Source: a virus. From it: DNA of 64,000 bases. The notes under the pieces are model-generated. The model was not told the DNA's origin and did not search any database. It was given only the letters and a program-made list of their open reading frames with translations. The stretch lies in IMG/VR virus record IMGVR_UViG_3300011008_000009, positions 32,001 to 96,000 of that record; one strand, written 5' to 3'. Each line of letters opens with the position of its first letter. Within the stretch, counting starts at the first letter, position 1. Position numbers and translations under genes: made by a program. Below, piece by piece: positions 1-64,000 of the stretch.

Positions 1-1
1 T

Positions 2-1117
2 AATAAATCTATAAGTCACTCATATGTAAGATTTAATCATTATGGATTATACTTTGTGAAAGATAGTGACCAATTTGACCAAGACTTGTTAACAAAGACA
101 AGTGGCTCTGGTGGAAAAATTACAGCAGACGCACTTAATTTCATTATGAATAACGCAGACGTGGCTGTTACTTATAATGGTTTTGCTATTAATGGTCTTT
201 CGGGAAAGGTTAGATTTACTTCTGCTGACGGTATTGTAATGAAAGACGATTCTGATGAAGAGGTTATTAGATTAGGTCATATTACAAATACTGAATTAGA
301 CGATGATATCAAGGACTTCTGGGGCTTATATGCGCGTGGAGCGTATATAGAAGGTAAAATATATACCAATAAGGTAATCCAAAGAACTGTTGATTTAGGA
401 GTAACAGGTAGAGTTAAAGTCGATGATATAAGTCGTAGTATGCTAAACGGTGGTAGACTAGAAATATCTAAGACTGTAGTTGAGTCCGGATCGGTTGACG
501 TAAGCAATAGAGAGCTAAAGAAGATTACCTCTTTTGGCGCCGCCCTGTATAATATGGGAACGACCGATGATGATTTATCAGTAAATGACCAATTAAGTAA
601 TTTAGGTAGTACAGTCTATGTCCATAAAGACGGATGCTTCTGGAGTGTAAGTAGTTATAATGATACTGCGAACACATATAATGCTAAATTATTATATGTT
701 CGTAAACAAATGGGCGAGTATGATGAAGATACTTTTGTAATAAAGTGTAATCATTTCAGAAATGACGCTCAAGCAGTAACCAATGCTGTGGCTCCGCAAA
801 CTCAATCCGATATTAAAATTAAGAAGAATATTGCTACTATTTCCGATAATTATTTAGACTTCATAGATAAACTGCAAGTAAAAACTTACAACCTTAAAAC
901 TCAAGACGACTCGGCGCCGAAACACATCGGACTAATCGCTCAAGAGGTTCAACAGGCTTTAGCTGATTGTGGCTTAACTGATAATGGCTTAGTATCACAA
1001 ATGCCCGATGATACCCTTACAATTAATTATACCGAACTTCTTACTCTCGCAATAGCAAAAATTCAGCAATTAGAAAAGCGTATAACAGAATTAGAAAATA
1101 AAAAGCCCGGAGTTTAA
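2..1117 (+). CDS. tail fibre/spike, C-terminal part, with an S74-type intramolecular chaperone (self-cleaving) domain; 5' end lies outside the window
   Basis: The frame is open from nt 2, with no stop upstream of the GTG at 56. The C-terminus SDIKIKKNI...KHIGLIAQEVQQAL...LTINYTELLTLAIAKIQQLEKRITELE fits the endosialidase-chaperone (peptidase S74) pattern. Confidence 0.75.
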   Translation, partial: NKSISHSYVRFNHYGLYFVKDSDQFDQDLLTKTSGSGGKITADALNFIMNNADVAVTYNGFAINGLSGKVRFTSADGIVMKDDSDEEVIRLGHITNTELDDDIKDFWGLYARGAYIEGKIYTNKVIQRTVDLGVTGRVKVDDISRSMLNGGRLEISKTVVESGSVDVSNRELKKITSFGAALYNMGTTDDDLSVNDQLSNLGSTVYVHKDGCFWSVSSYNDTANTYNAKLLYVRKQMGEYDEDTFVIKCNHFRNDAQAVTNAVAPQTQSDIKIKKNIATISDNYLDFIDKLQVKTYNLKTQDDSAPKHIGLIAQEVQQALADCGLTDNGLVSQMPDDTLTINYTELLTLAIAKIQQLEKRITELENKKPGV

Positions 1118-1127
1118 TCACTCCGGG
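1106..1127. terminator. bidirectional hairpin terminator between convergent genes
   Basis: cccggagt-ttaatc-actccggg is an 8-bp GC-rich stem. It is followed by tttctgttatttt on + and preceded by aaaa on +, giving a U-run on both strands. It sits at the stops of ORFs 56..1117 and 1114..1497. Confidence 0.7.
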
Positions 1128-1500: not shown

Positions 1501-2241
1501 TTACTCCCAAACAATAACTCTTAGTGCTAATTTTTTTGAATAGTATCTACCTATACAAATTGCGTCTGCGGCATCATCACTAGTAACATCTAAGTCATAC
1601 CACTGTTTAACTAAAAGCTGTGCGCTCTTTTTGCGGTCCGCTCTATACTTTCCTTTAACTCCACACCCTTTTCTCCAAACAGACGGATAAACGGTTTCAA
1701 AAGGAATTTTTAATTCAAAGGCAGTATTTTGTAATACTCCTTGTAGATGCGCCAAAACCTTATATGTGGTAACATTCTCTATGGCATCTCCATTAGCTCC
1801 TTTTTCATTTTGAAGCTGTATATCTTCTATGATTAAGCTATCGGGGCGCCAAATAGAAATCATATTAATCATCCACTGTTTAATAGCTTCTATACGTTCT
1901 ACTTCAGTAGATTGATTAACGGAGAATGTTCCAAATTTGATTAACTTACTATCATCAAATATTGCCCAACCAGTACTATATGTTGCATCATCTAAAGCAA
2001 GTATTCTTTTTTTAACACCTGTTTTAGGCATAACTCTGTTTTCAACGGGAGTGTAAGTTGTCGCATCACAGATTGGACAAGAATGGTTTTCGCGCCATAA
2101 TCGGTAAGTAAGAGTTACTTCGTGTCCTTGTGGACATTTATATTGAAGTTCAGTATCTAAATTTGTATAGGTATCACTAAGAAGCGTCCAATTTATCATA
2201 GACGCTTCTTTTTTCAAATCTTCTATATGAAATTTACTCAT
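1501..2241 (-). CDS. RuvC-like Holliday junction resolvase with N-terminal Zn-ribbon
   Basis: ILALDDATYSTGWAIF...IIEDIQLQ...DAADAICIG gives the RuvC-fold acidic residues. CPQGH...CPIC forms a Zn-ribbon. The start was chosen at MSKFHIE, overlapping the dUTPase stop; the track ORF extends to 2274. Confidence 0.7.
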   Translation of the reverse strand: MSKFHIEDLKKEASMINWTLLSDTYTNLDTELQYKCPQGHEVTLTYRLWRENHSCPICDATTYTPVENRVMPKTGVKKRILALDDATYSTGWAIFDDSKLIKFGTFSVNQSTEVERIEAIKQWMINMISIWRPDSLIIEDIQLQNEKGANGDAIENVTTYKVLAHLQGVLQNTAFELKIPFETVYPSVWRKGCGVKGKYRADRKKSAQLLVKQWYDLDVTSDDAADAICIGRYYSKKLALRVIVWE

Positions 2242-3070
2242 TGACGGTACTGGTTCCGCTAGAGCCGAAACCATTTTCTCCTCTAGTATTATCTGCTTCG
2301 GCGCTTACATCGCCTTCTTCAAAAATACCAATAGGCACTTCATTAAACACCATCTGAGCTATTCTATCTCCCTTAGCAATTACATAAGGTGCATCTCCAT
2401 AGTTATCAATAAGCACCTTAATTTCACCGCGATAGTTACTATCTATTGTTCCAGGAGCATTTGCTACTCTAAGTTTTGTTTTTGCACTCATTCCACTTCT
2501 CGGACGTATTTGTGCTTCATAACCCTTGGGTATCTTTAGCACAATACCAGTACCGACAGCTACTGTTTCATTAGGATTTACTGTACACGCTTCAACAGCA
2601 TAGATATCGGCGCCTGCATCACCAGCGTGAGCATAGGTAGGAACAATAGCATCTTCCGAGAGCTTCTTATACGCTACATTTATTCGTTTAGAGGGGTCTT
2701 CCTGATAGTCTAGAATGCCCTTATATGAAAGCTGCATTAATTTAAGAAGGAACTCTTTCTTTTGGTCTGAAATTTCGAAGCTATTAATAACTTCTATCAT
2801 TCCATCGTAGCCCTTTTTCTCTCTTTCGTAGTCTATGTCAGAATAAGAAGCTAAATGCTGACTTACTGTATTATGGTAAGCTGTGGAATTGAAAACTTGA
2901 TCCATAGAACCATATAGACCACTAGCAAGGTCATTAAACTCATTATCGTCCAGAGCGATTATTGCTGAAACTATACCACCAAGGTCTCCATCATTTAAAG
3001 CCTTTAACAGGTCCTGCTTAGGATCTGGAACACCATTTTTCTCAGCCATTTTAATTTTATTATTTGTCAT
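2234..3070 (-). CDS. dut: dUTPase with an N-terminal extension of about 130 aa of unknown function
   Basis: The C-terminal half carries the dUTPase motifs AGDAGADIYA, RPRSGMS, GTIDSNYRGEI, GDRIAQMVF and RGENGFGSSG. Confidence 0.9.
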   Translation of the reverse strand: MTNNKIKMAEKNGVPDPKQDLLKALNDGDLGGIVSAIIALDDNEFNDLASGLYGSMDQVFNSTAYHNTVSQHLASYSDIDYEREKKGYDGMIEVINSFEISDQKKEFLLKLMQLSYKGILDYQEDPSKRINVAYKKLSEDAIVPTYAHAGDAGADIYAVEACTVNPNETVAVGTGIVLKIPKGYEAQIRPRSGMSAKTKLRVANAPGTIDSNYRGEIKVLIDNYGDAPYVIAKGDRIAQMVFNEVPIGIFEEGDVSAEADNTRGENGFGSSGTSTVNE

Positions 3071-4020: not shown

Positions 4021-5046
4021 TTAGCCTTTTATATTGTAACCATATCCTTGTCCTTCATAAAACTCGATCCAGTATTTTTCCTTTGCGGTTAGATCCTTTT
4101 TGTCACATTCCTCAACTACTTGCCAAGTAAAGCTATAAGGACCGTCCTCTTTCATAGCTGGATATAGTTTATTAGATGTCATAGGTTCGGCGCCGACAGC
4201 TCGTTTAAGGTGTTGCCGCCAACGCTCTGCTATATCTACTGCTTGACCTATATACACTTTTTCATTCAAAGTGTTTGTCAGCTTGTAGATACCAGTAATT
4301 TGTTTGGTTCCTATTACTCGACCTACCAAATCTGTATACGGCTTTTCGTAATAGGTTTTATAAATTAATTTGTCTAATATCTCTGGGTGATGAAGCAGAT
4401 GCTTTATACTTTGTAAAGCCTGTATATCGGATATGTCGTTTTCTGTTATATTTAACTGATAAAATTTAGCCTTTTCTCGTATCTCTTCTTGCTCTTTGTT
4501 TATCTTTATTATACTTTCTTGTTTATCACGATATTCTTTCAGTATATGTTCAAAATTAGCTTTTTCTTTTTCATACTCTTCGGTCATTTGCCGTTTCAGT
4601 CTTTCACACTGTTGTTTATAACTTTCTACTTCTTTATTGGCATTATCATACATTTGGTTCTTAAATTCTTGCGTTTCGGCGCCGATACTATCTTTCTTAT
4701 CTTTTAGTTGAGATTGATAAATCTCTTCTAAAGACTTTAGAGCTTCTTCTTTCTCTTTTACGCCATTAGATAATATCTCATAAGAACCAGTTAAATTATT
4801 AATTTTGTTTTCTAATGAAAAACTTTTGGATTGCTGCTCTCTTAGGTCTGCATAAACTTTATCTCTATTTGCAGATAAATTTTCATATTGTTCGTTTAAT
4901 TCTTTTATCTCGTTTTCTTTAGATTCGATACTTTCTTTTAATTCTTGAAGACGACGTTTGGCTTCTCTACTTAAATACCAGTAGAGAAGCGCAAGTAGAC
5001 AACTAAGAATTATAACAATTGCAATAATTATCATAACGCCGAACAC
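4021..5046 (-). CDS. membrane-anchored coiled-coil protein with C-terminal GIY-YIG nuclease core
   Basis: N-terminal hydrophobic helix MFGVMIIIAIVIILSCLLALLYWYL. About 200 aa of heptad-rich E/K sequence follows. The C-terminus is GIYKLTN..KVYIGQAVDIAERWRQH...KEKYWIEFY. Confidence 0.7.
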   Translation of the reverse strand: MFGVMIIIAIVIILSCLLALLYWYLSREAKRRLQELKESIESKENEIKELNEQYENLSANRDKVYADLREQQSKSFSLENKINNLTGSYEILSNGVKEKEEALKSLEEIYQSQLKDKKDSIGAETQEFKNQMYDNANKEVESYKQQCERLKRQMTEEYEKEKANFEHILKEYRDKQESIIKINKEQEEIREKAKFYQLNITENDISDIQALQSIKHLLHHPEILDKLIYKTYYEKPYTDLVGRVIGTKQITGIYKLTNTLNEKVYIGQAVDIAERWRQHLKRAVGAEPMTSNKLYPAMKEDGPYSFTWQVVEECDKKDLTAKEKYWIEFYEGQGYGYNIKG

Positions 5047-5047: not shown

Positions 5048-5689
5048 TCAGCAAATAGTGTTTATTATTTCATCTATAAAGCCTAATTCAAGCGCCTGCT
5101 GAGCTGTGAACCAGTTATCATCTTTACTCATTTTGTCATAATCTTCTTCCGTTATGTTAGAGTTTTTAATGATATGGTCTTTGAGCTGTTGAAGTTGAGT
5201 ATTATAGAACTCAGCGTATTTCTTAAACTTATGTGCATCTTGCATACCACTACCAATAGAACCTTCGTGTAGTAGGAATGAAGTATGTTCATAAGCCATT
5301 CGCTTATCACCAGCAAGAGCAATAAAGAGTCCACTACTATATGCGGCGCCGGTAACAATAGTATAAACAGGAATTTTGGATGCTTTAATCGCATCTATAA
5401 CTTCAAAAGCGTCTATTATCGAGCCACCATAAGAGTCGATATAAATTTTAATAGGTTCTTTTTCAACCTTGCCAGCATCTAAGATATTCCATATTAGAAT
5501 ATTCTGATAAATCTGTGAACCAGTGTAGTTATTCTTGACATCATTTAATATAATTGTACGATTTTTAAAAGTTACAACATCTATTAAATCTTGAACTGCA
5601 CTGTCCTCATCCGGCGTTAGTGCGTTTTCAAGCACTTCCTCAAGAAAATCATCGAGGTCTTCTCCAGTCTTTAATTTGTCCTTATTCAT
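5048..5689 (-). CDS. ClpP-family serine protease
   Basis: YIDSYGGSIIDAFEVIDAI...TGAAYSSGLFIALAG...LLHEGS matches the ClpP/S14 core. The start was chosen at MNKDKL; the track ORF extends to 5854. Confidence 0.75.
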   Translation of the reverse strand: MNKDKLKTGEDLDDFLEEVLENALTPDEDSAVQDLIDVVTFKNRTIILNDVKNNYTGSQIYQNILIWNILDAGKVEKEPIKIYIDSYGGSIIDAFEVIDAIKASKIPVYTIVTGAAYSSGLFIALAGDKRMAYEHTSFLLHEGSIGSGMQDAHKFKKYAEFYNTQLQQLKDHIIKNSNITEEDYDKMSKDDNWFTAQQALELGFIDEIINTIC

Positions 5690-6915: not shown

Positions 6916-8428
6916 TAGGCTTCTGCACGCTCCGTTACTGTAGTTAATAAACCTTTATCATCTATATTTGTTATCAATTCAACTAGATGATAAGGAGTAC
7001 TTTTATATTTCTTAGGTATGAAGTTATTCTCTCTTCTAATACCCGTGAATATAATTTTATTTCCTCGACTAAACCAAGACTTTTCAATAACCTTTTTATG
7101 CCCGTCCGTACTCATAACGCTAATCTGCTTATCAAAGATACTAAACTGATTAGCATATATCTTAACATCTACAACTCCTGTAGTTGTTAAAATAGTGACT
7201 GTGTTCTTATTTTTATTCTTATCAATTACAGTTCCTGCTATTCTTGTAATTCGATAAATCGGAATATCTCTTCCCTTTATGGGTATGGTGTTTACTACTT
7301 CAGCGGTCTCCGGCATAGATTTGAAATCTTCCAGTTCATAAATTATCTTAGGTACTTTCTTAAGTTCGTGATCGTGGAAGTAGAAGTTTACACTATCCAT
7401 TTCCCATTTACTAATATTGCCCAAAGCATATTTGTTCCAGAAGTCGTCAAACAGCTCCTTATTGAGACCAATTAACAAATCATTCAAATGACTTTTAATA
7501 TAATCACTCAAAGGCTGCATTAACTTTTTATACATCTTATCCCACATAGCGCTAGGAATATATCCTATGGGTTCATCATTTTCATACTCTATGCTAACAT
7601 TTTCAGTATCAAAATTACTTTCGTAAAAACTAAAGCAATATAGGTCAAGATAATATTTATCTGTTAATCCCTTATCCTTGCTTATCTTTTTGATAAACTT
7701 GTTAAAGTTAAATACTTTTACATTAAAAGAAAGTTCTTCGGGGAACAATTTCTTTTCTATAAGTTTCTGCGCATTTCTCATATTGAGAGTAGTTTTCGCG
7801 CCACATATGGAAAGAATATAATCTTTCATTATTTCCGTTCTTTCGCCAAAGCTATCAAAAGCTCCACTTTTAATTAAGTTTACCATTTGCGGCTTATTGA
7901 CTTTTACCTTACACAAAAAGTCATTAATAGAGTTATAAGGTCTATTTCTTATGATATCTTTTGCAAGGTCTTTGCCTATCTTTAATATTCCTTTAATTCC
8001 ATAGTATATCTTATTTTCTGATTCTACTGGAGTAAAGGTAAAACTAGACTTATTAATATCTGGTAAAGCTATTGTTATTCCAGCGGACTGCATACTTCCG
8101 ATTGCTGTAGCAATCTTTCCGTAGTCAATTTTATTCGGTTTCTTTTTCTTGACCACGGTGCCATTCTCTTGTGGATTATCTTCTTCAGTATCCAGGAGTT
8201 CGTCCTCCTCTTCCTGTAGTTCTTCAGAGCAAAATACAGATTCAGTTGAACTCTCTGATTCGTTGTCTTGAGAATCATTTTCTTCATTTTCTTCTTCTCC
8301 GTCCGCAGCGCCACTATTAACTATTAAGTTTGCTGTGTTCCAATAAATTACTGGATACTTACAAGCAAGTTCCATTTCTTGAAGTCCGACAATTGAGTAG
8401 GCAAGGGTATGTGACTGATTGAAGCCAT
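6915..8428 (-). CDS. dnaE: DNA polymerase III alpha (DnaE-type), exon 3
   Basis: The frame is open upstream of the track ATG and reads (Y)GFNQSHTLAYSIVGLQEMELACKYPVIYW, the conserved YGFNKSH...YP motif region. A C-terminal OB-like part follows. The junction is inferred. Confidence 0.8.
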
Positions 8429-9652
8429 CAAGGTAGATGTTATTTTCATAACTGACTACTACCTTAGACTATATCTTCATCGTTTTTAGAGTCAAATAGC
8501 GGCTCTACCAACCGATATTTTCGACTAAGACAGATTTTACAATCTTTATACAAAATGTTAGCTAAACATTTTGCAGTTTTTTGTTTTGTAGTTTGACAAA
8601 CATATCCATTATTTTTCTTATCTTTTACATTTATTTTATTAGTAAACGAGGCTTCTATAGGAAGAAAAGAATTGCAAAAAGTTTTAAAATCCTCACAAGT
8701 GGATTGATAATTTGAAACAAAACCTATGTGATAATAATTATTTTTATCTATAGAAATCCAGCCGTCTCCATCTATCAAACCTCTTATAAAATGAGGTCGC
8801 ACAGCTAACGATAACTCTGGTAAATGTTTTGTTTTATGTGTTTTATCTGGCACTATACCATATTTAGCCAAACTATTACATAAATGTTCGCTTATCATTC
8901 GGATAGAACAAACTTCTGTATTACCTCTATTTCGATAAGAAATTTTACTATTAAGATTTAATTCCTTTTTAAATCTCTCTAATAATTCTCTGTCTTTAGC
9001 TTGTATTTCTATAGTTAATTGATGGTTATAAACGTTTCCATCTGCAAAAACAAATCCTAAAAAATAAGCCTTTTCTTCTGTATCAATATTATCAAAAAAT
9101 TCATCATTCTGTTCTTTATTGAGCTTAGGTTTATTAATTATTTTTATATTATTTTTAACTAAAACCTTATGGATTGTTTCGGTACAACAATTATATTTTC
9201 GAGCTATTTCGTTTTGAAACAAATCTGTAGTTGTATATAATTTAATTATTTCTTCTTCATCTTTTTTATTTAATATTCTAGGACTTTTTTTACTACGAAT
9301 TTCAATATTATTATCTTTTAATATTTTACTTATAGAATTTGCTCTGCAATGTAAAATTTGTGTAGCTATATATGAAATTGAAAATTCATCTTCGGTATAT
9401 AATTTTATGATATTTTTAATATCATTTTCTGTCCATTCTCTTCTTTTCGGCATTTTATCACCTCCTTTTAATTTAATGGTAGATAAACGATGCGTGGCAC
9501 TTGGGATTTCTCCTACTCTATACTAGATAGTCGTTGAACCTTCCGTTAGCTAAACGGCTTGGCTGCTGATAAGCATATCATATAGACTTAGCTTTCCAGC
9601 AATTCACCACGTTATTCAAATAATCTTACGATTATAGGGAGCAATTTTATTT
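8429..9652 (-). mobile_element. group I intron (dnaE intron 2) carrying a LAGLIDADG homing endonuclease
   Basis: 5' splice site after U (GGG U|AA) and 3' splice site after G (CUUG|AU). Joining gives SRG-Y-GFNQSH. The RNA contains GGUUCAACGACUAUC (R-like element, about 9526-9540) and CUAAGGUAGUAGUCAG (S-like element) near the 3' end. Confidence 0.75.
8464..9453 (-). CDS. LAGLIDADG homing endonuclease with repeated N-terminal HTH modules
   Basis: YFLGFVFADGNV and FIRGLIDGDGWI motifs. Intron-encoded, with GGAGG before the ATG. Confidence 0.85.
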   Translation of the reverse strand: MPKRREWTENDIKNIIKLYTEDEFSISYIATQILHCRANSISKILKDNNIEIRSKKSPRILNKKDEEEIIKLYTTTDLFQNEIARKYNCCTETIHKVLVKNNIKIINKPKLNKEQNDEFFDNIDTEEKAYFLGFVFADGNVYNHQLTIEIQAKDRELLERFKKELNLNSKISYRNRGNTEVCSIRMISEHLCNSLAKYGIVPDKTHKTKHLPELSLAVRPHFIRGLIDGDGWISIDKNNYYHIGFVSNYQSTCEDFKTFCNSFLPIEASFTNKINVKDKKNNGYVCQTTKQKTAKCLANILYKDCKICLSRKYRLVEPLFDSKNDEDIV

Positions 9653-27212: not shown

Positions 27213-27411
27213 ATCCTTTTGCTCTCGTTACCTCTCCCTTTACTGTTGAACGAACCTTATTAAACTCCTCATCAGTAAAGTAGTAACTTTCTACTCCTTT
27301 ATTTTCTACTATATAAAGAGGAGATTTAAGCCAATACAGTCTACCTTCTTTTATAAAGTCTGGCGCAAGATACCATAAGTTTGCCATAATTAACAATCCT
27401 ATGTGACTTCC
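27213..27411 (-). CDS. type II topoisomerase B subunit, exon 2
   Basis: GSHIGLLIMANLWYL...LYWLKSPLY corresponds to GyrB DGSHIRTLLLTFFYR...YIAQPPLY. Confidence 0.8.
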
Positions 27412-31999: not shown

Positions 32000-32001
32000 A
32001 C

Positions 32002-53431: not shown

Positions 53432-54785
53432 AGTTAATAATGACCTAACCTCTGGCGTGTTTGATAGGGATTTAGTAGTTATAAATAATGATGTTATAAC
53501 CGTAAATGGAGAAGAGATAAGTAATACTACTGGAAACTATTGGGTCGATTGGGCAATAGGTTTTCAGTCTTTTTGTATAAATACTTTGGGATTAGAAGTA
53601 CAAGACGGTCCAGGAACGAGCGTAGGAATAGTACAGAGTGAAATGGGACCAGTTCGTTTTCAATATGACTGTGATTGGAACGAACCTTTTGGAAGAGTTA
53701 AAACCTTTAATGGACAAGAACATTATGTCTATCAAGAAAATGGATATACTCTGTGGTCAGATGATGAAAATACTTTATGGGGTAATATTACTCGACAGAA
53801 TGGTATAGATAGTGTAAATAGACGCTTTGATTTCATTGTCTGGTTTACTGTTCAAGATGAAACAAAAGGTAGAATAGGATTAAGATTTAAATATCCAATT
53901 ACAACGGAAAGAGGTTATAGTTGTCCGTATTATATTTCTTCTTCTCCTTTTATACAACCTTGGTATGAGAAGGGAGATAAAACAGCGGTTAATTATTATA
54001 GAATTAATGATAGTTGGGGAAAGTATTATAGTTCAAGTGGCAGAAGAACGGCTACTATTTCTTTGAGTAGCGATGATTTAGTATCTAATAGTTATGCTGT
54101 ATTGGCTGGTCGTTATTTATATGCAACCACTAAAACTTTTCAAGATGAGGACGGCGCCAATAAGTTATGGATAGAATATTCTCAAGGCTTGTCTGGAACT
54201 TATTCCTACGAGACTTTAGGTGGTGAATACGCTTCTGATGGAGCTGCTTCCTTTTCTAAGCTAATGGCTGAGAACCCTAGTCATTTAAAATGTTTTGTTT
54301 CAAAAAATAAGCAACTTATAAATATTAAAATTTTAAATAATAGCGGGAAAGTAGAATTAGATATTCTTTATGGAGATTTAATGGATGATAATGGAGAAGT
54401 TAATTCTTTTGTAGAAGTAAAAAGCCATAATTCCCATACACCCTCTGGTGGAAGTACTATTTATGATATGGATAACTTTTTGATTACTGATAATCATTAT
54501 AATGTTAGAACAAGTAATCAAATCAATCGTCCCACTTCTACCGCCGTTAATGATTATAGTAAATATTGGGGTATTACTAGGGTATTACTTCAAGAAGAAA
54601 CTAAGCATTGCGCTGAATTGTATCAAGTTTTTAGTTTTGCGGATACTATGTCAAAGCATTTATATAAGCAAATTAATTTTATAGATACAAACAATGAAAT
54701 TCAGCCTTTTATAGTATTTAATTATGGTACTCAAAATAGTAATAATAATTTCTTTAACGCTACTTTGTTAGCTATGCCAATATAA
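53424..54785 (+). CDS. paralog family A, member 1 (unknown function, probably structural)
   Basis: WVDWAIGFQSFCINTLGLEVQDGPGTS...DCDWNEPFG...NGIDSVNRRFDFIVWF...GRIGLRFKYPITT...LLAMPI*. Confidence 0.65.
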   Translation: MIKVNNDLTSGVFDRDLVVINNDVITVNGEEISNTTGNYWVDWAIGFQSFCINTLGLEVQDGPGTSVGIVQSEMGPVRFQYDCDWNEPFGRVKTFNGQEHYVYQENGYTLWSDDENTLWGNITRQNGIDSVNRRFDFIVWFTVQDETKGRIGLRFKYPITTERGYSCPYYISSSPFIQPWYEKGDKTAVNYYRINDSWGKYYSSSGRRTATISLSSDDLVSNSYAVLAGRYLYATTKTFQDEDGANKLWIEYSQGLSGTYSYETLGGEYASDGAASFSKLMAENPSHLKCFVSKNKQLINIKILNNSGKVELDILYGDLMDDNGEVNSFVEVKSHNSHTPSGGSTIYDMDNFLITDNHYNVRTSNQINRPTSTAVNDYSKYWGITRVLLQEETKHCAELYQVFSFADTMSKHLYKQINFIDTNNEIQPFIVFNYGTQNSNNNFFNATLLAMPI

Positions 54786-54796: not shown

Positions 54797-56404
54797 ATGA
54801 CAAATGAAACAACAGGTTACTTAACCTTTTATGATATGAGCACTGGAATTTTTAATGTTCCAGATCCAACTAAACAATTAAGTGATTACGAGTGGCCAGG
54901 AGAAGACCCAACAGACCCCACATCAGACCCAGATTATATGGTTAAAGATTGGACCACTTGGATGTTGGCTTTAAGTTATTGGTTAGAATATTATTTTGAT
55001 ATTGAAGTCTCTAGTGGAGATGGTAGTAGTTTAGGGCAGGTTGGTAGTAGACGTTATAATTCACAGGCATTATATAGCGGAAGATATCGTCAATATATAG
55101 AAAGAGATAATGACTGGAGTAGCGATGATTTAGGCAGATATGACCCACCTTTAGATGATAGTTGGCCCAATTTCCAACAATATAGATGTCCTAGTCCTTT
55201 TGATTATAGAGCGAGTGATAGTGACCCTTACACTTCAGCAACTGGCAAATGGCAAGGTACTGAAAAATTTGACTTTATTCATAATAGATTTGATATTATA
55301 TTAAAATTAAAAAAAGATAATAATAACTTAAATAATCTAGGAATTAGAATTAAGTATCCAATAACCACTACTGGCACAGCTGACTATGTCGAACAGTCAG
55401 ATGCATGGACAGTAGGATGCTCTTCTAACAGTAATGCAGCTTTTATAGTTCCTGGTGCTGTTCCCATAGTAATAGAAAATAATGATATTATACAACCAAT
55501 ATTTAACGATTATTATATGGATACATGTGGTAACGATGAACTAACTGCAGGGAACAAGGCTTTCGGTTATATAACCTTTTTTTCTTCTACAATTAACAGC
55601 GGTTCGTCCGAATATTTTAATGACTATGTAGTTAACCAATATAGAATTAAATACAAAGGAAATATATATGATAGGCACTCACTGCCAACTTACGGCGGCG
55701 GAGATAGAGTGACCACTTTTCTAAAATGGAATAAGGATTTTGAACAATATTTAAATTCCGGTTATAAATTTTCAGTTAAAGGTCGTCCTTATAATCATAT
55801 CTATTTTAGAAAATCAATGGATGATAAGAATATAAATATTTGTATTTTAGACCAATCCTATGGTAAAAAATTTGATTTTATAGTTTTTGAGAATACTGAT
55901 GGTAGTCAAACATTATTGTTAGGTAATGACAATAAGAGTTTTTATAATGGTCGCTGCCGTGACAATATGTATCGTTATATAGACCAAGAAGTGTCAGGAG
56001 TCTATTACAAAAATTATGATATTGCGAATACCTATGGTACCATTGGCAACACAATGATTTCTAACAAACAAGAAAATGGTCAATATTTAAACAAACTCAC
56101 TCCTTCAAAAGCAGGTTATTATTATGATGTAAGAGACAGTAATTATAATTTAATAGATGCCACAGGCAATTGGCGCCTTGAGCTTTTTAGTCCTTTTAAT
56201 AACGTGTATGCTACTAATTTATTTTTAGTTACTCGATGTGGTACACAAGACTTATTAAGTATAGACGGAAAATATATAATAGCTACACTTAATGGTGATT
56301 TAACTAAATTCTTGGTGTTCACTTTTAACGGCAGAACATTACACGAATATTCAACAAATGATAATAACACTATGTTTGCAATACCAATAGAGGTGATAGA
56401 GTAA
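54797..56404 (+). CDS. paralog family A, member 2
   Basis: WTTWMLALSYWLEYYFDIEVSSGDGSS...NRFDIILKL...NLGIRIKYPITT...MFAIPIEVIE*. Confidence 0.65.
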   Translation: MTNETTGYLTFYDMSTGIFNVPDPTKQLSDYEWPGEDPTDPTSDPDYMVKDWTTWMLALSYWLEYYFDIEVSSGDGSSLGQVGSRRYNSQALYSGRYRQYIERDNDWSSDDLGRYDPPLDDSWPNFQQYRCPSPFDYRASDSDPYTSATGKWQGTEKFDFIHNRFDIILKLKKDNNNLNNLGIRIKYPITTTGTADYVEQSDAWTVGCSSNSNAAFIVPGAVPIVIENNDIIQPIFNDYYMDTCGNDELTAGNKAFGYITFFSSTINSGSSEYFNDYVVNQYRIKYKGNIYDRHSLPTYGGGDRVTTFLKWNKDFEQYLNSGYKFSVKGRPYNHIYFRKSMDDKNINICILDQSYGKKFDFIVFENTDGSQTLLLGNDNKSFYNGRCRDNMYRYIDQEVSGVYYKNYDIANTYGTIGNTMISNKQENGQYLNKLTPSKAGYYYDVRDSNYNLIDATGNWRLELFSPFNNVYATNLFLVTRCGTQDLLSIDGKYIIATLNGDLTKFLVFTFNGRTLHEYSTNDNNTMFAIPIEVIE

Positions 56405-57776: not shown

Positions 57777-57976
57777 TGCAAATTTGGGAATGTATTATTA
57801 CTCGTAAAGTACAGGTTACGCGCCCTGACCCTACTTTTTATGATTATACTGATTGGTTTTCGGATACATCTGGGCGCCTAAACCCTGACTTTTGGGGAGA
57901 TTTTATAATGACAGTAACTCAAATACCTATTTGTACTGTTGAGGGAGAAAATATAGAGGAGTTGAAGAGTAGTTGA
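57776..57976 (+). CDS. hypothetical small protein
   Basis: 66-aa ORF overlapping both neighbours by 1-4 nt. Confidence 0.45.
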   Translation: MQIWECIITRKVQVTRPDPTFYDYTDWFSDTSGRLNPDFWGDFIMTVTQIPICTVEGENIEELKSS

Positions 57977-60030
57977 GTACAACAATAGCCAATTTACCAA
58001 AAGCTGGTAGTTTATATGATAACCATTTAATGATAGTAGAAGAGGTAAGTAATGGTACTTCTGTTGAAACTCAGAAAACTACTCTTCAAGACTTATATGA
58101 ATGGCTAAATAATGCTTTAAGTAACGTTTATACACAATCTTCACAAATACAAGTTATTGGTAGTAATATTGATAGAGAAGTAAATGATGTTACTAATACA
58201 GTAATATTCCACTTCGTTTTGCCTAATTATGAGCCTAAGACTTATTACGAAGGTGAAATTGTAGCCTATAAAGATTGTATTTATCAATGTATAAACGATA
58301 CTCAAAGCGCGCAAATTGATGATATAAATTGGAAAAGAATGGGATACAATCCTGGCAAGTATATTACTATAGACGAAGATAATATTATATCGGCGGCGGG
58401 AGTAAAAACTTGGCAAAGTGGAGAAGAATATGCAATAGGAGATTGTGTAATTCGTAATAAACAATTATATCAATGTTTAATAGCAAATACCGATACCACT
58501 TGGGATAAAAACAAATGGCAGAATATAGGCGAAGGTAATGGAATATTAATTTACGAAGATAGAAAATACTATGATGTTGGCGCCATTATAATTAAAGACG
58601 ATATGTTATATAAAAGAGTTAGTGGCGGCGCCGATATATCTTGGACTCCTAGCAATTGGATATGTATTTCAAGCGGTATTTATAGTATTGTCTATATAAA
58701 ATATTCATATGATGTTCCTACTAGAGATAGTGAAATGTCAGATATACCGAATAGATATATTGGTATATGTAATGGAAGTAACACTAATGTGCCGCGACAT
58801 TATACCGATTATGTATGGTATAAAATCAAAGGCGAAGATGGCACAGTTAATGTAGAAGCTAACTGCATTGTTATCGAAGCTACATTGGATAAAGATGATT
58901 GGAGTAATACTATTCCTCATACTATTACTGTTTTAGATAGTACAGTTACAGAAGATATGTACCCTATCGTTGATATCGTATTATCAGCTGATACTTCTCT
59001 TTGGGGAGACGAAAAAGAGAATTTTGTTTTAATAGACAAGGCGGTCGCCACTAATGGCGCTATAACTTTTTATTGCGGTAGTGATAAGCCAGCTATTGAT
59101 TTGAATATTAAGGTAAGATTTAATGGCGATGTTAATGAAAATAGCTTTGCAAGGAGAGACGAATTGCAATCTTTTGAAACATCTACTCAAAGTGCTTTTG
59201 TTGCTATGGGCGCCAGAGTGACTGATAATACTAATGACATAGAAGAACTACAGGCTGGAATACAGTTGATAATAGATAAGTTAGAAGAATTTAATATGGT
59301 GGATTATAAATATTGGTTAGTTTTGGGAGAAGTAACTACTGAGTACGACAGTTTAGCAGAAGTATTGGCTTCTACCGATTATCCAGTGTTGTTAAATAAT
59401 GAGCGTTCCGCCGCCTATGCAGCCTATATCTCGTCTGAAATTGCTACTGCAATAAAAAATAATCTAACATATTTAAGACAAGCATTATTATGTGATAATA
59501 GTGATATGTTCTTTAATTCTAGTTATGACTATGATGAACATATAGAAGAATTTACCGAGGTTAATCCTACTGTTACTAGTGGAACTTATCAAGGTATAGT
59601 AACTTGTAGTTCTGATAGAGAGAGTTATGGTTATTGTGGCTATATGGCTTTTGATGGTGGAGTTGATAGTAATGATTTGACTGTAGTAGGTGAAGATAGA
59701 CATATTTGGTCTGCTATGGGATTAAATCAATGGGTACAATATAAGTATAGCAGTCCTAGAAATTTATATAAGGTTAAAATCTATGGTATAAGAGATAATG
59801 CACCATTAAGTGTAGAAGTTCAAGGCAGCAATGATGGCGAGAATTTTACTACTATAGATGTGAAGAATTTAAATATTGTACTTGATGCACAAAATTACAC
59901 TGAGTTTATTTGTACTTGTAATACTAAGTATATGTATTATAGGTTTGTAATAAATGATAATTATTATAGTGGAACTTGCGCGGTAGGAGAAATTGAGATT
60001 TATACATTTGTGGAGGACAACAATGGCTGA
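57973..60030 (+). CDS. tail fibre / receptor-binding protein with CBM5/12-like repeats and a C-terminal discoidin (F5/8 type C)-like domain
   Basis: Three W/Y...Y.(I/E)G(D/E).V.....LYQC...W repeats. The IKYSYDVPTRDSEM...YIGICNG...YTDYVWYKIKGEDG motif is present. The C-terminus is NQWVQYKYSSPRNLYKVKIYG...VEVQGSNDGENFTTI. Confidence 0.65.
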   Translation: MSTTIANLPKAGSLYDNHLMIVEEVSNGTSVETQKTTLQDLYEWLNNALSNVYTQSSQIQVIGSNIDREVNDVTNTVIFHFVLPNYEPKTYYEGEIVAYKDCIYQCINDTQSAQIDDINWKRMGYNPGKYITIDEDNIISAAGVKTWQSGEEYAIGDCVIRNKQLYQCLIANTDTTWDKNKWQNIGEGNGILIYEDRKYYDVGAIIIKDDMLYKRVSGGADISWTPSNWICISSGIYSIVYIKYSYDVPTRDSEMSDIPNRYIGICNGSNTNVPRHYTDYVWYKIKGEDGTVNVEANCIVIEATLDKDDWSNTIPHTITVLDSTVTEDMYPIVDIVLSADTSLWGDEKENFVLIDKAVATNGAITFYCGSDKPAIDLNIKVRFNGDVNENSFARRDELQSFETSTQSAFVAMGARVTDNTNDIEELQAGIQLIIDKLEEFNMVDYKYWLVLGEVTTEYDSLAEVLASTDYPVLLNNERSAAYAAYISSEIATAIKNNLTYLRQALLCDNSDMFFNSSYDYDEHIEEFTEVNPTVTSGTYQGIVTCSSDRESYGYCGYMAFDGGVDSNDLTVVGEDRHIWSAMGLNQWVQYKYSSPRNLYKVKIYGIRDNAPLSVEVQGSNDGENFTTIDVKNLNIVLDAQNYTEFICTCNTKYMYYRFVINDNYYSGTCAVGEIEIYTFVEDNNG

Positions 60031-60229: not shown

Positions 60230-60961
60230 ATGCATACCTTAAATGAAATAGAATTAACCCTAGTATGCTCGCAAGAGGGAACAGAAACTATAGCTGAAGC
60301 ATATCAAAGAATGATACTTGATGCTTTATCTCAATATACTGGTCTTATTAGAGAGGGTAGTAAAGTATGGTTTGATTCTGAAAAAAGAATAGGCTTTGAA
60401 GTTTATTGTTATAACACTAATTATATATATACTAGATGGTCAATAGACAACGTTACAGTTGGAAACAATTTGAGTTATAATAATTTGTCTGCAACTGGGG
60501 CTATAAAAATGAGAATACATCGTAGTACACAAGAAAGCGTAACTTACTTTACTTTAAGTTATCTAACGTCTGCTACTGCAACGAACACAACTGAAACCCC
60601 TTTTATGTGTGCTGAAACCGCGGATGGTGAAAAAGTCGTTTTCAGTTATTATGATTATGGTTATGAAAGAACAGTGATTTATACTAATACCATTAATTCC
60701 TTAACAGATACTGTGCTTAGAATTACTCGCGGCATGTATTCAAGCTATTATTGTATTACGAAGTATCCAGATGCTTATCATAATAAACCTTTTAAAGAAT
60801 TATATTTAGTCTGCAGCTATACAGATACAGAAAAAGCTAACAATCAATTAGTATCTTTCCCAGATTCGGTTTATCGCTTCGTGAGAATGCACAATAGAAA
60901 CGATGCTAGTTATCGTTTTTCTTACGGCGGCTTCGCCTTCCCCGTTTCTGACCCAGCATAA
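60230..60961 (+). CDS. hypothetical protein sharing the C-terminal FAFPVSDP motif with family A
   Basis: Ends YGGFAFPVSDPA*, compared with LLAFPVSDPEVSE* of ORF 56406..57776. Confidence 0.6.
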   Translation: MHTLNEIELTLVCSQEGTETIAEAYQRMILDALSQYTGLIREGSKVWFDSEKRIGFEVYCYNTNYIYTRWSIDNVTVGNNLSYNNLSATGAIKMRIHRSTQESVTYFTLSYLTSATATNTTETPFMCAETADGEKVVFSYYDYGYERTVIYTNTINSLTDTVLRITRGMYSSYYCITKYPDAYHNKPFKELYLVCSYTDTEKANNQLVSFPDSVYRFVRMHNRNDASYRFSYGGFAFPVSDPA

Positions 60962-61022
60962 CTTTTTTAGACCCTATTATAAGCTCCTTCACCTAATGGT
61001 AGAAAATATTAAGGAGGGATAC

Positions 61023-64000
61023 TATGACCTATATCCAAACTACCTCTCCTAGGACGGCAGTATTCTACGGCGAATCAATGGCTGATTTAGCCTTAATGCC
61101 GACTACTACCAAAATAGGTGAGGGAGAGTATATACACGCCTTAGCCCAAGAAGGCAGTTATGCTATGATATTGCTCACAGACGGCTTGAAGAAATTTATG
61201 CTCCGTAGCACTGGCTGGGTTGAAGTAAAAGACCAAGGCGGTGGCGGTAGTTGGTTCGAGCCAGGCGGCAACACAACCTTTGCAGAATTGCCTACTCCAA
61301 GTGGAGATAATGTTGGTATTGTATATAATGTTACAGATGCCTTTACTACTGATGAGCGTTTTAATGAAGGCGCTGGGATAGATTATCCGGCGGGAACTAA
61401 CGTTGCGATAGTAAATGTTGGTACAGACTCTACTCCAGTGTATAAGTTTGATGCCTACGCGGGCGCCTATACGATTGATGATGAATTGTCGTTAGTGTCG
61501 GAGAACCCTGTGCAGAATAAGGTTATAACTAGTGAGATTAATGGGATTAATACTGCGTTACAAAATAAACAAGATACGCTTACATTCGATCAGCAACCTT
61601 CACAAGGTAGCAACAATCCTGTTAAAAGTGGTGGACTATATAATTCTCTTGGTGGTAAGTCTGCACTTACATTTTTACAGGCTTATGATGCTTCCGTTGC
61701 ACAACTTTCGTCAGGCTTTGTTTTCACGCCGCAAGGTGCCTACAATATGTACGAAAATGTTATGAGAACAATACCCTCTGTTGCCGGAAGCATAGCGGGT
61801 CAGTTAATTAATTCTGCAATACCACAAGTTATGCCAAAAGTTTATTGGTTTGCTGTTCAAGGTTCAGATTGGGACGAATATGGTGAGGCAGTAATAGATT
61901 TACAGAATGATTTCCAAATTGTTATTTCTCAAACTAATTATAACCAATTAATAGTACAAGATGGCTTGAATTACTGGAACGATTACGCGATGGAACTTCA
62001 TACCGTTAATACAGATGAAAGTGGGAATATTACCACAATACAACTTGTATGTGATATTTATAATACCCAAGATCCACCTAGTAACCCTCCTACTTATATG
62101 GAGTTTTTAATAATATCAAGCCCAGCGACCAAAAATGGAGCAGCTTCGCTTTCAGCTTTATATGAGTCGCCAGGATTAAAGGCTCTTGCTGATAAACCTA
62201 ATATAGATGACACTCCTAGTTGGACCAATACATATAGTTCGATGCGTATTGACGAAAAGGTCGCCGCGCTGATAGACGATACCACAGCCGCGCAGAACAA
62301 GACATACAGCTCGGCAAAAGTGGAAGAGAAAGTCGCCGGCGAAGAGATCACCACCACAGCCACCGGCTCTGACCTGACCCTTTCCACAAGCTCCGGCAAC
62401 ATCAACGCACTCACGGTTTACGGCAAGTCTGAAGTCGTGGACGGAAGCATTAAGAGTGCGGGTGAGGGGTGGAGTACTGTTGATTTAGGGACACTGACGT
62501 GGGGCTATAATTCATTCTCAGCTTCAAACCCGTTTTTTTATGCTTCTGACATAAACATCAAATTGGCTACAACGCAGGCAATAAATGAAAATCTTGTATG
62601 TGAGGCATATAACACATATTCCTTTAACACTGTGCTGTACGATGTAAATATAGACAAAGCAATCGGTGTAAATAGTGTTGATAATGCATATAAACTTGTC
62701 GCAACAAACACTGATTACGCCGACGCAGCCTCATTCAAAACAGCAATGTCTGGCATTATCCTCGCATACCAACTCGCAGACCCTACACAGGGCAACACAA
62801 TAGCTGTCAAGACCGACAATGGCTCGGGCATAGACGGCACTATGGCTGTATTCACAACGGGGGCACCGCTGTATGGTGTTTCTGATACCGTAAGAGATGT
62901 TATGCAGTGGAACGGTTCGAACGGTGAGGTTACAAAGAATTGTGCGAAAGGTAGATTAGCGGATTTGACATGGACTTTAGACAATGATAGACAGGCTTTC
63001 TATACTAACGATTTGACCAATATAATTAAGCCTGCAATCAACTTTAATAGTCGACCAAATCTTTTAATAGACGGCTACACCGTAGTCACTCCAAGCCAAG
63101 TTCTGACAAGCACCACTGACTTGCGAATATCAGCATACCATTATGGGCAATTCGACATACTTACGCTCCGAAACCTCGCGTACACAACAGTCTCCGACTT
63201 TGTAGCTGGTCTCGGTGACGCAGAACTCATCTACGAACTCGCAACACCTACAACTGAACAGCTGACAACAGCAGAGAACGCAAGCATTGCAGGGCTTCGC
63301 ACTTTCGCGCCACAGACACACGCGCAGAATAATGCAGGTGCGACGATGACAATTGAAGCATACGCTGGAACAGCGAACGGCAAGGCAATCAACTCTATAC
63401 AGTCGGACCTACAGGAACAGATTAACAACATTAAAAACACAATAAAGCCAAGAGTTTATGCGTTCTACGTTGATCCAAACGATAGCAATCCTGCAACTCG
63501 CGTTCATCCGTATTATAACACAAAATACGGCTGTGATAATTTACTTTATATAAACGCATATATGGACTACGAAAAAGACGAGTTCAACTATGGTTCATGG
63601 GAAGATTTTATCAAAGAGTTTTTCAAGCCTTGTATGCTTGCTTATGATGGTCACGTAGATTATTATCTTGACCCAGATGATTATGAGACTAAACTTGACG
63701 GTGGTACAAGTGATATTAAGGATATGACCTATAACGGTAATGTTATGGTTCAAATTAAGAAACTTTGGGTTAAACGTTGGACAACAAACGGAAAATACTA
63801 CTGTATTATTTCTGACAAAAAACTTGACAAATCTTTTAAGGCTTTTGCACATCACGATATAAAAGGTAATGTACTTGACTATATTTATCGCGCTTGTTAC
63901 GACGGCAGCTATGACGGAACAAGACTACGCTCTATCAGCGGCATTGACTATCATAATCTCAATGCATTAACTGTTGACAAAATAATGTCAAATACTACTC
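61023..64000 (+). CDS. large tail fibre/receptor-binding protein, 3' end outside the window (absent from the ORF track)
   Basis: ATG at 61023 follows AAGGAGGG. I read no in-frame stop to nt 64000 (about 992 codons). Fibre-type motifs ENPVQNKVITSEINGINTALQNKQD, SNNPVKSGGLYNSL and TYSSMRIDEKVAALIDD. Confidence 0.75.

Follow-up and report, generated by a model that had tools for sequence, protein, structure and literature searches.

Why should an AT-rich phage genome be studded with one particular palindrome made only of G and C? The question is raised by a 64-kb stretch of a virus record (IMG/VR IMGVR_UViG_3300011008_000009, positions 32,001 to 96,000), hereafter the window, which has 34.7% G+C and represents roughly half of the phage genome. 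An earlier note, made by eye from the sequence, had reported about 45 copies of the hexamer GGCGCC in it. Exact counting recovers 45 sites, every one at the position originally given (Table 1), and GGCGCC is the top hexamer of the window by z-score. The finding is a word in a phage that resembles the highly iterated palindromes (HIPs) of cyanobacteria, and it is real, specific and unusual; GGCGCC is best filed as the HIP-type word of this phage lineage, the cyanobacterial HIPs being its closest counterparts. To the earlier observations we add the turnover of site positions at maintained density, the enrichment of near-cognate words, and the HIP precedent, which includes GGCGCC itself (PMC4390886).

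GGCGCC is over-represented in every codon phase

The size of the excess depends on the null model. Base composition predicts 1.75 sites (26-fold excess), an order-1 Markov model 2.6 (17-fold) and an order-2 model 3.9 (11-fold); under Markov models of orders 3 and 4 the signal disappears, since GGCGC/GCGCC pentamers lie mostly within GGCGCC sites. Synonymous-codon shuffles within open reading frames (ORFs), which preserve each protein and the per-gene codon usage and are to be compared with the 44 ORF-counted sites, give 5.1 +/- 2.1 sites (maximum 13 in 2000 shuffles, an excess of about 10-fold) and, in a second run, 4.4 +/- 2.0. The excess is thus 10- to 26-fold, and the 30-fold figure originally proposed lies at the upper end. 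The control phage, Geobacillus virus E3, has no GGCGCC site in 41.7 kb.

All 45 sites are located inside ORFs, in genes of both strands, with no intergenic or regulatory enrichment. They occupy the three codon phases in the proportion 29/8/8 for phase 0 (GGC GCC, Gly-Ala), phase 1 (xGG CGC Cxx) and phase 2 (xxG GCG CCx), as against expectations of 2.5/0.32/0.60, so that the enrichment is 12- to 25-fold within each phase (25-fold in phase 1 and 13-fold in phase 2). As had been suspected, the word is built from disfavoured codons: GGC accounts for 20% of Gly, GCC for 14% of Ala and CGC for 8% of Arg codons, and three sites are spelled CGG-CGC, although CGG makes up just 2.9% of Arg codons. The GGC-GCC spelling is used in 28 of the 81 Gly-Ala dipeptides (2.3 expected), and GCCGGC, which contains the same two codons in swapped order, occurs in only 2 copies, as expected. 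The observed GGC-GCC fraction of 0.35 stands against a neutral chance of about 0.020 (estimated excluding Gly-Ala contexts), and arithmetic on these dipeptide counts gives a pressure per potential Gly-Ala site of about ln(26), or about 3.3 log-odds units. This indicates a weak per-site force, similar in size to a codon-bias selection coefficient or a repair bias.

The site is dyad-symmetric and its near-cognates are enriched

The preference extends beyond the hexamer to a dyad-symmetric consensus of about 14 bp, TnTC-GGCGCC-GAnA. Taken over half-sites, position -1 is C in 50% (P = 1.5e-12), position -2 is T in 58% (P = 8e-7) and position -4 is T in 59% (P = 3e-7), and a weaker preference for G is seen at positions -5 and -6. 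This bears out the bias towards C-GGCGCC-G that had been noted before: 8 copies have the form TCGGCGCCGA and one is the centre of a 16-bp palindrome (Table 1). Control words do not show the flank pattern, which is unchanged when sites are oriented by gene sense and is alike in phases 1 and 2 together and in phase 0. When the left and right flanks of each site are compared, 77 complementary pairs are found against 84 expected, which means that there is no correlation beyond the consensus and that the symmetry reflects two independent half-site preferences. The absent left-right correlation also rules out an origin of the symmetric flanks by template switching (quasi-palindrome correction). An oligonucleotide form of the site suited to binding or cleavage assays is TnTCGGCGCCGAnA.

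The claim that the enrichment is specific to GGCGCC stands with respect to the other all-GC palindromes, since CCGCGG (2 copies) and CGGCCG (0 copies), like GCCGGC, are at expectation, and GCGCGC (5 against 1.7 expected) and CGCGCG (3 against 1.4) are at most mildly raised; it has to be relaxed for overlapping and near-cognate words, which are enriched too (CGGCGC 31, GCGCCG 28, GCCGCC 20 and CGCGCC 17 copies). The near-cognates GGCGCG/CGCGCC and GGCGGC/GCCGCC are about 6-fold enriched, equally in sense and antisense and in all phases, whereas one-base variants with A or T reach at most 1.7-fold. GGCGC/GCGCC remains about 2.5-fold enriched outside the palindrome, GCGC outside the hexamer is at 1.7-fold, and GCSGC is at 2.3-fold in the window, unlike GCWGC. 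A generic enrichment of GC hexamers can be rejected, because other palindromes are at expectation and only words sharing GGCG/CGCC are enriched. Taken together, the enrichment in each phase, the equal near-cognate enrichment in both orientations and the dyad-symmetric flanks in any frame show that, as the earlier note had argued, the constraint acts on the double-stranded DNA sequence and not on peptide or codon usage.

Along the window the spacing of the sites is Poisson-like (coefficient of variation 1.10; P = 0.18 against uniform placement), and regular spacing, as might be produced by Okazaki priming or a nick periodicity, is rejected on the same measure. Sites are about equally dense in the leftward replication arm and the rightward structural arm; over the window there are 703 sites per Mb, and in long-resident DNA about 810 per Mb (about 0.8 per kb).

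Relatives maintain the density of the word and turn over its positions

Relatives of this phage were found as metagenome contigs with 44-98% protein identity to the window; their record names belong to the STEW19, TONG22 and WILK20 series, which we take to be ruminant-gut data sets. The excess of GGCGCC recurs in the closer ones, at strengths differing from 4-fold to 33-fold: 10 sites against 0.5 expected (20-fold) in L001 (98% protein identity), 10 against 0.3 (33-fold) in L002 (76%), 4 against 0.2 (20-fold) in L147 (84%, nuclease gene), 6 against 0.5 (12-fold) in L146 (64%, nuclease gene), about 12-fold in L006-L009 (68-69%), and 3 against 0.5 and 1 against 0.3 (about 4- to 6-fold) in L004 and L005 (75%). 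There is no excess in L010, L011, L148 and L149 (44-51%), of which L010 has 2 sites against 0.2 expected.

Conservation of the sites at synonymous positions, which the earlier note had put forward as a check, is not what these relatives display. With L001 (95% nucleotide identity, identity at 4-fold sites 0.87) all 9 of 9 aligned sites are common, which is not significant (P ~0.09) given 0.77 per site for control adjacent 4-fold codon pairs. Among seven relatives near saturation at 4-fold sites (identity 0.40-0.46), the number of aligned window sites in common falls to 6 of 50, against control values of 0.13-0.22. L002 has as many GGCGCC sites as the window and none at the same place, and orthologous positions often still encode Gly-Ala, but spelled GGCGCG, GGCGCA or GGTGCC. 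Since the excess recurs in relatives at different positions, it is the density that is maintained while individual sites are gained and lost. These results show a weak, genome-wide, strand-symmetric pressure on a dyad-symmetric word, which maintains density and not positions.

The word itself also changes across the phage family. GCGCGC/CGCGCG is enriched in L010, L011 and L021 (32 against 2.9 expected in L011), and GCSGC, not GCWGC, is enriched 2- to 10-fold in nearly the whole family, with about 9-fold in L149 (17 against 1.8 expected), in which GCGC is absent (0 against 5.0 expected); Geobacillus E3 has no GCSGC excess. TGCGGAA-type words are enriched in distant relatives (among L012, L016 and L017) with a strand bias of about 2:1. 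A scan of IMG/VR with the extended motif TATCGGCGCCGATA gave essentially chance matches and no AT-rich contig with a clear excess.

This enrichment is set in a genome from which restriction-type words have been very strongly purged. The depleted 4-bp words include GGCC (4 observed against 80 expected), CATG (22/171), GATC (38/188) and CTAG (108/237), the 6-bp words AAGCTT (0/31), GAATTC (0/22) and ATCGAT (1/18) are nearly or wholly missing, and GANTC-type and GGATG/CATCC words are also depleted under a codon-aware null. Solely GCGC and CGCG are over-represented among the 4-bp palindromes containing G or C. The purge suggests an unmodified DNA facing many host restriction systems, and its coexistence with one dense palindrome constrains ideas on host restriction and phage DNA modification.

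Recently acquired DNA has yet to acquire the word

The two largest gaps between sites fall on mobile inserts. The intron/homing-endonuclease inserts (6.0 kb in total) contain 0 sites against 4.7 expected (P = 0.009), and the same holds when the intein of about 1 kb is added (about 7 kb, P ~0.004). The gaps reported earlier are thus real, with modest statistics; a test controlled for amino acids is powerless here because the inserts are AT-richer and contain just 2 Gly-Ala dipeptides. The statement that GGCGCC is missing from all mobile inserts holds for the introns and the intein and is slightly overstated otherwise, as sites do occur in two resident nuclease genes of homing-endonuclease type (4021-5046 and 37519-37905).

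The inserts were delineated by comparison with intact genes of relatives. The PolIII-alpha gene consists of exons 13482-11548, 10328-9654 and 8426-6918 with two inserts between them, and the inserts must be recent because the gene is intact (1368 amino acids) in the 98% identical L001. Scans of the window with tRNA and Rfam models returned nothing, no Rfam intron model having reached threshold, and the term intron therefore rests on these split-gene comparisons and not on ribozyme models. The nrdD gene (32002-37003) harbours the intein and two inserts with HNH ORFs; its N-terminal ORF encodes an ATP-cone (amino acids 6-97) and LAGLIDADG_3 (367-430), and NRDD resumes at amino acid 483. In the GyrB-like gene (26371-29937) two GIY-YIG ORFs interrupt or flank the coding sequence. 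Both of these genes are intact in L146.

The GC-richer patch after 61.5 kb, also singled out before, indeed has no site; it is coding sequence, and with about 1.9 expected the absence alone carries no significance. It belongs to a long plus-strand ORF (61003 to beyond 64000, at least 999 amino acids) that runs off the end of the window. Amino acids 462-999 of this ORF (42% G+C, with a different skew) are 66-67% identical to ORFs of the phage contigs L150 and L151, which have 41-46% G+C and no GGCGCC excess, and a JGI scan with the ORF retrieved solely GC-richer phages sharing its C-terminal module. The match to GC-richer phages marks this part as a borrowed, mosaic module, probably a receptor-binding (tail-fibre-like) one. 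Its lack of sites fits the general picture, in which recently arrived DNA has yet to acquire the word (amelioration lag), although the statistics are modest.

The phage word compared with known iterated sequences

The nearest precedent comes from cyanobacteria. In a survey of 97 cyanobacterial genomes the most over-represented hexamer was GGCGCC, in Calothrix PCC 7103, where it replaces HIP1 and is accompanied by two GRCGYC methyltransferases; GCsGC is another alternate HIP, and HIP densities are 1000-2000 per Mb (Elhai 2015; PMC4390886). The HIP1 word is GCGATCGC. The phage word is identical to the alternate HIP of Calothrix, and like the HIPs it is short, GC-rich and palindromic, 10- to 26-fold over-represented in all frames within genes, and sporadic and lineage-specific in its occurrence, with sister lineages carrying GCSGC and with one-off variants enriched. 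Relative to composition its observed/expected ratio of 17-26 exceeds the value of about 15 taken here to mark a HIP. Its density (700-800 per Mb) is just below the HIP range. Unlike the HIPs, it sits in the genome of a phage of a rumen or gut Bacillota-type lineage and not in a cyanobacterial chromosome, and no cognate methyltransferase was found within the 64-kb window. The TnTC/GAnA flanks are a feature of the phage word that has not been described for the Calothrix word. A literature search found no paper describing such a word in a phage genome.

HIPs have been a puzzle in cyanobacteria for about 30 years, in which selection has been set against biased repair and roles in methylation, recombination or nucleoid structure have been discussed. 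The present case shows that HIP-like words occur outside cyanobacteria and outside chromosomes, and a phage lineage of about 100 kb offers a small, fast-evolving system, whose relatives differ in both strength and word, whose recent inserts provide an internal unameliorated control, and in which the reader gene should be findable by comparative genomics and directly testable. Iterated words of this kind are also lineage signatures, which can assist in the binning of phage contigs and reveal modules acquired of late.

Other known systems resemble the phage word in part. In Escherichia coli the Dcm sites (CCWGG) are reportedly over-represented through Vsr-dependent very-short-patch repair, as Bhagwat and McClelland in 1992 and Gelfand and Koonin in 1997 are said to have described. 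Such repair corrects T:G mismatches in a methylase-site context towards C. Here too a methylase-type target palindrome lies above expectation, but the effect in E. coli is well below 2-fold compared with 10- to 26-fold in the phage; the T-containing neighbours, which should be depleted, are not significantly so, and there is no Vsr homologue in the window. Site-specific single-strand nicks have been described in T5-like and some Pseudomonas phages (PMC10644984, PMC3517423); in T5 and BF23 they are confined to one strand and are few. They share with the present case a short phage-specific word, and the window has a ligase with a coupled small nuclease; a palindrome at 0.7 per kb cannot by itself specify a strand, and the fit is poor. 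We know of no nick motif that is over-represented. The Noc-binding NBS sites and the RacA-binding ram sites of Firmicutes number tens per 4 Mb and are position-specific and conserved. The phage word is similar in being an approximately 14-bp, dyad-symmetric, partly GC-rich element inside the genes of an AT-rich genome, and differs in its density of about 0.8 per kb and rapid turnover.

What might read the word

We infer that the reader of the word is a sequence-specific DNA enzyme treating both strands alike. We propose, with a probability of about 0.35, that the pressure is imposed by a strand-symmetric enzyme in a HIP-type process, probably linked to a cytosine methyltransferase, either as a repair bias or as a per-site benefit. 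The reader would most likely be a cytosine methyltransferase of the GGCGCC, RGCGCY or GCGC class, with its gene in the phage or in the host. By one route, methyl-linked mismatch correction might favour changes that create sites, as in the G-meC-directed mismatch-repair ratchet of Elhai, under which over-representation need not mean selection for function (PMC4390886); by another, each methylated site might confer a small additive benefit. Near-cognates with G/C swaps are given partial credit by the pressure. We rank this reading first because the enriched words of the family are classical C5-methylase targets, because they change from lineage to lineage in the manner of methylase specificities, and because solely GCGC-type words escape the purge of restriction sites. 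The link to a methylase is an indirect one, through the GRCGYC methyltransferases that accompany the word in Calothrix, the methylase type of the lineage words (GGCGCC, GCGCGC, and GCSGC but not GCWGC) and the C5 and Dam-class methylase genes of relatives.

Several observations weigh against this proposal. Within the 64-kb window, about half of the genome, there is no methyltransferase, known nickase, Vsr or MutH-like gene, and no methylase is found at the window position matching that of the C5 methylase gene of L149 (15230-16165 of that contig). L149 itself has this C5 methylase and zero GCGC, and its own word, GCSGC, is also enriched in relatives without a visible C5 methylase. The deamination neighbours of GGCGCC are not significantly depleted (GGTGCC/GGCACC 7 against 10.4, z = -1.2; GACGCC/GGCGTC 4 against 6.4, z = -1.1), a test that we reason to have little power under a reversible model; GGCGCT/AGCGCC is present in 21 copies against 12.3 expected. 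HIP1 sites are conserved in position, from which selection has been argued (Xu et al. 2018; PMC5861425), and the phage sites are not. The repair-ratchet mechanism is itself unproven, cyanobacterial HIPs included, and a binding-energy landscape would account no less well for the strong, extended flank consensus and the graded enrichment of near-cognates.

That last point leads to a protein-binding explanation, in which a homodimeric protein encoded by the phage binds or cuts at GGCGCC with its TnTC/GAnA flanks and selection on density favours many weak sites spread over the genome; we regard it as only slightly less probable than the methylase reading. The protein might condense or organise the DNA, might be a site-specific nickase that acts together with the phage ligase, or might be the phage type II topoisomerase, for which the word would be a preferred site, and the window offers a PD-(D/E)XK nuclease translationally coupled to the ligase, a winged-helix protein and topoisomerase II subunits. 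A dyad-symmetric consensus of about 14 bp with independently varying half-sites, the graded enrichment of near-cognates, the tolerance of very rare codons (CGG-CGC) and of non-synonymous changes at sites, and the lineage-specific excess that is absent in foreign DNA all favour such a site, while the lack of positional conservation, clustering, regular spacing and regulatory enrichment does not. The candidate nuclease is, furthermore, also encoded by L148 and L149, both without GGCGCC excess, so that nothing ties it to the word, and no phage is known to us to maintain about 0.8 binding sites per kb within its genes. A Chi-like or recombination signal, either GGCGCC or its 5-mer half GGCGC/GCGCC, for a host AddAB/RecBCD-type enzyme or for phage recombination appears improbable to us. 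It would account for a short GC-rich word kept at about 1 per kb within genes of an AT-rich genome by density rather than position, for the pentamer excess outside the palindrome and for the partly strand-biased GC-rich words of distant relatives such as TGCGGAA, and a palindromic signal could work whichever way linear or rolling-circle DNA is traversed. Elhai likewise compares HIPs with Chi (PMC4390886), and a 2024 preprint reports that HIP1 sites in donor DNA improve the efficiency of natural transformation in a homology- and methylation-dependent manner. The phage word is nonetheless palindromic, with palindromic flanks out to +/-4-6 bp that a Chi-like signal would not lead one to expect, and its near-cognates are enriched to the same extent in either orientation. 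Known Chi sites are asymmetric and strand-oriented, being read on one strand (single-stranded DNA). The Firmicute Chi words include AGCGG, GAAGCGG and GCGCGTG. By raw counts alone these show no comparable excess here (AGCGG 24 sense, 17 antisense).

A compositional or translational artefact, produced by clustering of GC-rich codons, by GGC-before-G codon pairs or as a side-effect of the GGCC/CCGG purge, is very improbable. It draws some support from the mild enrichment of all-GC words as a class and from the use of GGC for Gly, which is 63% before GC and 42% before GG against about 17% elsewhere; GGC is never used before CA, CG or CT and in 1 of 15 cases before CC, an effect of GGCC avoidance. 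A null that preserves codon-junction dinucleotides accordingly lifts the expectation to about 20 sites, but its maximum of 31 is still below 45, and this null is conservative because its swaps began at the real sequence and mixed poorly. Against an artefact also stand the strong enrichment in phases 1 and 2, the equality of near-cognates in sense and antisense, the frame-independent symmetry of the flanks, the expected counts of GCCGGC, CCGCGG and CGGCCG, and the absence of the word from the Geobacillus E3 control, and this explanation is largely refuted. The probability left over beyond the four readings ranked above goes to explanations not considered here.

A further idea, which we hold to be doubtful, is that the phage itself both writes and reads the word, either because a strand-symmetric enzyme pair spreads GGCGCC as a self-propagating 'motif drive', or because the word marks phage DNA as self. 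In the former case the pair might bias repair or processing in resident DNA, and the small PD-(D/E)XK nuclease with its coupled ligase, with or without a methylase encoded elsewhere, would be one candidate; in the latter the mark might serve packaging, protection from a phage nuclease, or recombination with kin. The switches between GGCGCC, GCGCGC and GCSGC would then track changes of enzyme specificity.

Candidate genes in the window and in relatives

The gene of the candidate nuclease (128 amino acids) shares 14 nucleotides with the 3' end of the ATP-dependent DNA ligase gene (37892-39022). It lies directly downstream of the ligase gene in L146 and L147, and in L149 a 273-amino-acid ORF intervenes, which is overlapped by the homologue. 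D40, D56, H60, D77 and K80 are invariant and E54 is nearly so. An AlphaFold model of the protein has a pLDDT of 94, and Foldseek gave weak generic PD-(D/E)XK matches (Hjc, TnsA, R2 endonuclease, BstEII and Nt.BspD6I), all with E >= 0.03. Its identification as Vsr was rejected, there being no significant Pfam or PDB sequence match and no Vsr among the Foldseek matches listed. A small winged-helix protein (22003-22263) is a further candidate.

In the relatives, Dam-class (D12) and C5 methylase genes are carried in the same module, and Geobacillus E3 has three methylase genes. L148 (10857 bases) has a Dam-class (D12) methyltransferase gene, yet GATC is absent from it (0 against 27.9 expected).

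Table 1. GGCGCC sites, site-free acquired segments and a candidate reader gene, in window coordinates
Feature	Position	Strand	Context
GGCGCC	536..541	.	phase 0 (Gly-Ala), + ORF 56-1117
GGCGCC (TCGGCGCCGA)	913..918	.	phase 2 (x-Ala-Pro), + ORF 56-1117
GGCGCC	1845..1850	.	phase 1 (Trp-Arg-Pro), - ORF 1501-2274, RuvC-like
GGCGCC	2609..2614	.	phase 0, - ORF 2234-3070, dUTPase
GGCGCC (TCGGCGCCGA)	4189..4194	.	phase 0, - ORF 4021-5046, resident GIY-YIG protein
GGCGCC (TCGGCGCCGA)	4678..4683	.	phase 0, - ORF 4021-5046; common to L001
GGCGCC	5345..5350	.	phase 0, - ORF 5048-5854, ClpP-like; common to L001
GGCGCC (TCGGCGCCGA)	12580..12585	.	phase 0, PolIII-alpha exon 1; common to L001, L006
GGCGCC	13764..13769	.	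phase 0, RecJ-like ORF 13557-15320
GGCGCC	14901..14906	.	phase 0, RecJ-like ORF 13557-15320
GGCGCC	17425..17430	.	phase 0, DnaB-like ORF 16405-18054
GGCGCC	17884..17889	.	phase 0, DnaB-like ORF 16405-18054; common to L001, L006
GGCGCC	18094..18099	.	phase 2, YorH-like ORF 18051-18653
GGCGCC	18361..18366	.	phase 2, YorH-like ORF 18051-18653
GGCGCC	19117..19122	.	phase 0, PhoH-like ORF 18700-19944
GGCGCC	20069..20074	.	phase 0, AAA_24 ORF 19979-20974
GGCGCC	20585..20590	.	phase 0, AAA_24 ORF 19979-20974
GGCGCC (TCGGCGCCGA)	23702..23707	.	phase 0, topoisomerase II A-type subunit 22916-25276
GGCGCC	24764..24769	.	phase 0, topoisomerase II A-type subunit 22916-25276
GGCGCC	31485..31490	.	phase 0, MFS-like ORF 30342-31565, close to its 5' end (true start uncertain); 15 nt beyond the 3' end of NrdG-like ORF 31505-31999
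GGCGCC	33932..33937	.	phase 0, NrdD middle exon 33419-33970; common to L146
GGCGCC	37689..37694	.	phase 1 (CGG CGC, two rare Arg codons), nuclease ORF 37519-37905; common to L147
GGCGCC	38894..38899	.	phase 0, ligase ORF 37892-39022; common to L147
GGCGCC	39221..39226	.	phase 0, ORF 39035-39580
GGCGCC	39774..39779	.	phase 1, RNase H ORF 39595-40044; common to L147
GGCGCC	41633..41638	.	phase 1 (CGG CGC), + ORF 40459-42942
GGCGCC	42019..42024	.	phase 0, + ORF 40459-42942
GGCGCC	42532..42537	.	phase 0, + ORF 40459-42942
GGCGCC	42814..42819	.	phase 0, + ORF 40459-42942
GGCGCC	45387..45392	.	phase 2, ORF 44917-46596
GGCGCC	46134..46139	.	phase 2, ORF 44917-46596
GGCGCC (TCGGCGCCGA)	46296..46301	.	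phase 2, ORF 44917-46596
GGCGCC	48392..48397	.	phase 2, ORF 46596-48794
GGCGCC	49375..49380	.	phase 1, ORF 48807-50645
GGCGCC	49408..49413	.	phase 1 (CGG CGC), ORF 48807-50645
GGCGCC (TCGGCGCCGA)	49992..49997	.	phase 0, ORF 48807-50645
GGCGCC	50288..50293	.	phase 2, ORF 48807-50645; centre of 16-bp palindrome ATATCGGCGCCGATAT (50283-50298)
GGCGCC	52452..52457	.	phase 0, ORF 52293-53156
GGCGCC	54153..54158	.	phase 0, ORF 53424-54785
GGCGCC	56172..56177	.	phase 1, ORF 54797-56404
GGCGCC	57873..57878	.	phase 1, ORF 57776-57976
GGCGCC	58579..58584	.	phase 0, ORF 57973-60030
GGCGCC	58627..58632	.	phase 0, ORF 57973-60030
GGCGCC	59209..59214	.	phase 0, ORF 57973-60030
GGCGCC	61462..61467	.	phase 0 (Gly-Ala), resident N-terminal part of long + ORF 61003 to beyond 64000
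Site-free insert in PolIII-alpha gene	8427..9653	-	LAGLIDADG ORF 8464-9453; absent in L001
Site-free insert in PolIII-alpha gene	10329..11547	-	GIY-YIG ORF 10443-11357; absent in L001
Site-free GIY-YIG inserts	26371..28440	-	around GyrB-like exon piece 27211-27423; gene intact (615 aa) in L146
Site-free insert in nrdD	32470..33418	-	HNH ORF 32653-33267; NrdD intact (762 aa) in L146
Site-free insert in nrdD	33971..34753	-	NUMOD4/HNH ORF 34122-34661
Site-free intein (LAGLIDADG), boundaries approximate	35563..36553	-	inside NrdD N-terminal ORF
Site-free GC-richer C-terminal module, foreign	62390..64000	+	within ORF 61003 to beyond 64000
Candidate reader, 128-aa PD-(D/E)XK-fold nuclease	37519..37905	-	PHROG 559/9084 endonuclease domain

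Gene content and affinities of the phage

The window comes from a large phage genome whose replication module is SPbeta-like and comprises YorH-like and YorF-like proteins, a DnaB-type helicase, a Toprim primase, a YorK/RecJ-like exonuclease and a PolIII-alpha-type polymerase. Also encoded are topoisomerase II, NrdD/NrdG, PhoH, ligase, RNase H, dUTPase and ThyX-like, ClpP-like and RuvC-like proteins, and for the large structural proteins of the rightward block there are almost no matches to known families. A megablast search with the window found no nucleotide match among 50,697 phage records, and the best protein identity is 37% (Geobacillus virus E3 and the SPbeta group); no record of the identical protein was found. 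Among GTDB genomes the only relatives are 30-42% identical and derive from metagenome-assembled genome bins of Erysipelotrichaceae, Bacilli and Clostridia (rumen and rabbit).

The MFS-like ORF, which clearly matches the Major Facilitator Superfamily (E = 5e-25), lies in the replication module between the nrdG-like and gyrB-like genes, at the place where L149 has its C5 methylase gene. An HPr-like (phosphotransferase-system phosphocarrier) ORF (40200-40448, plus strand) is located just upstream of the gene of a large leucine-rich-repeat protein (40459-42942), where the rightward arm begins, and is conserved in L146, L147 and L149. The conserved resident protein encoded at 4021-5046 has 341 amino acids; its N-terminal region is coiled-coil or membrane-like, and its C-terminal domain is a GIY-YIG nuclease. 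The gene, next to that of the ClpP-like protein, also occurs in L001, L002 and L008.

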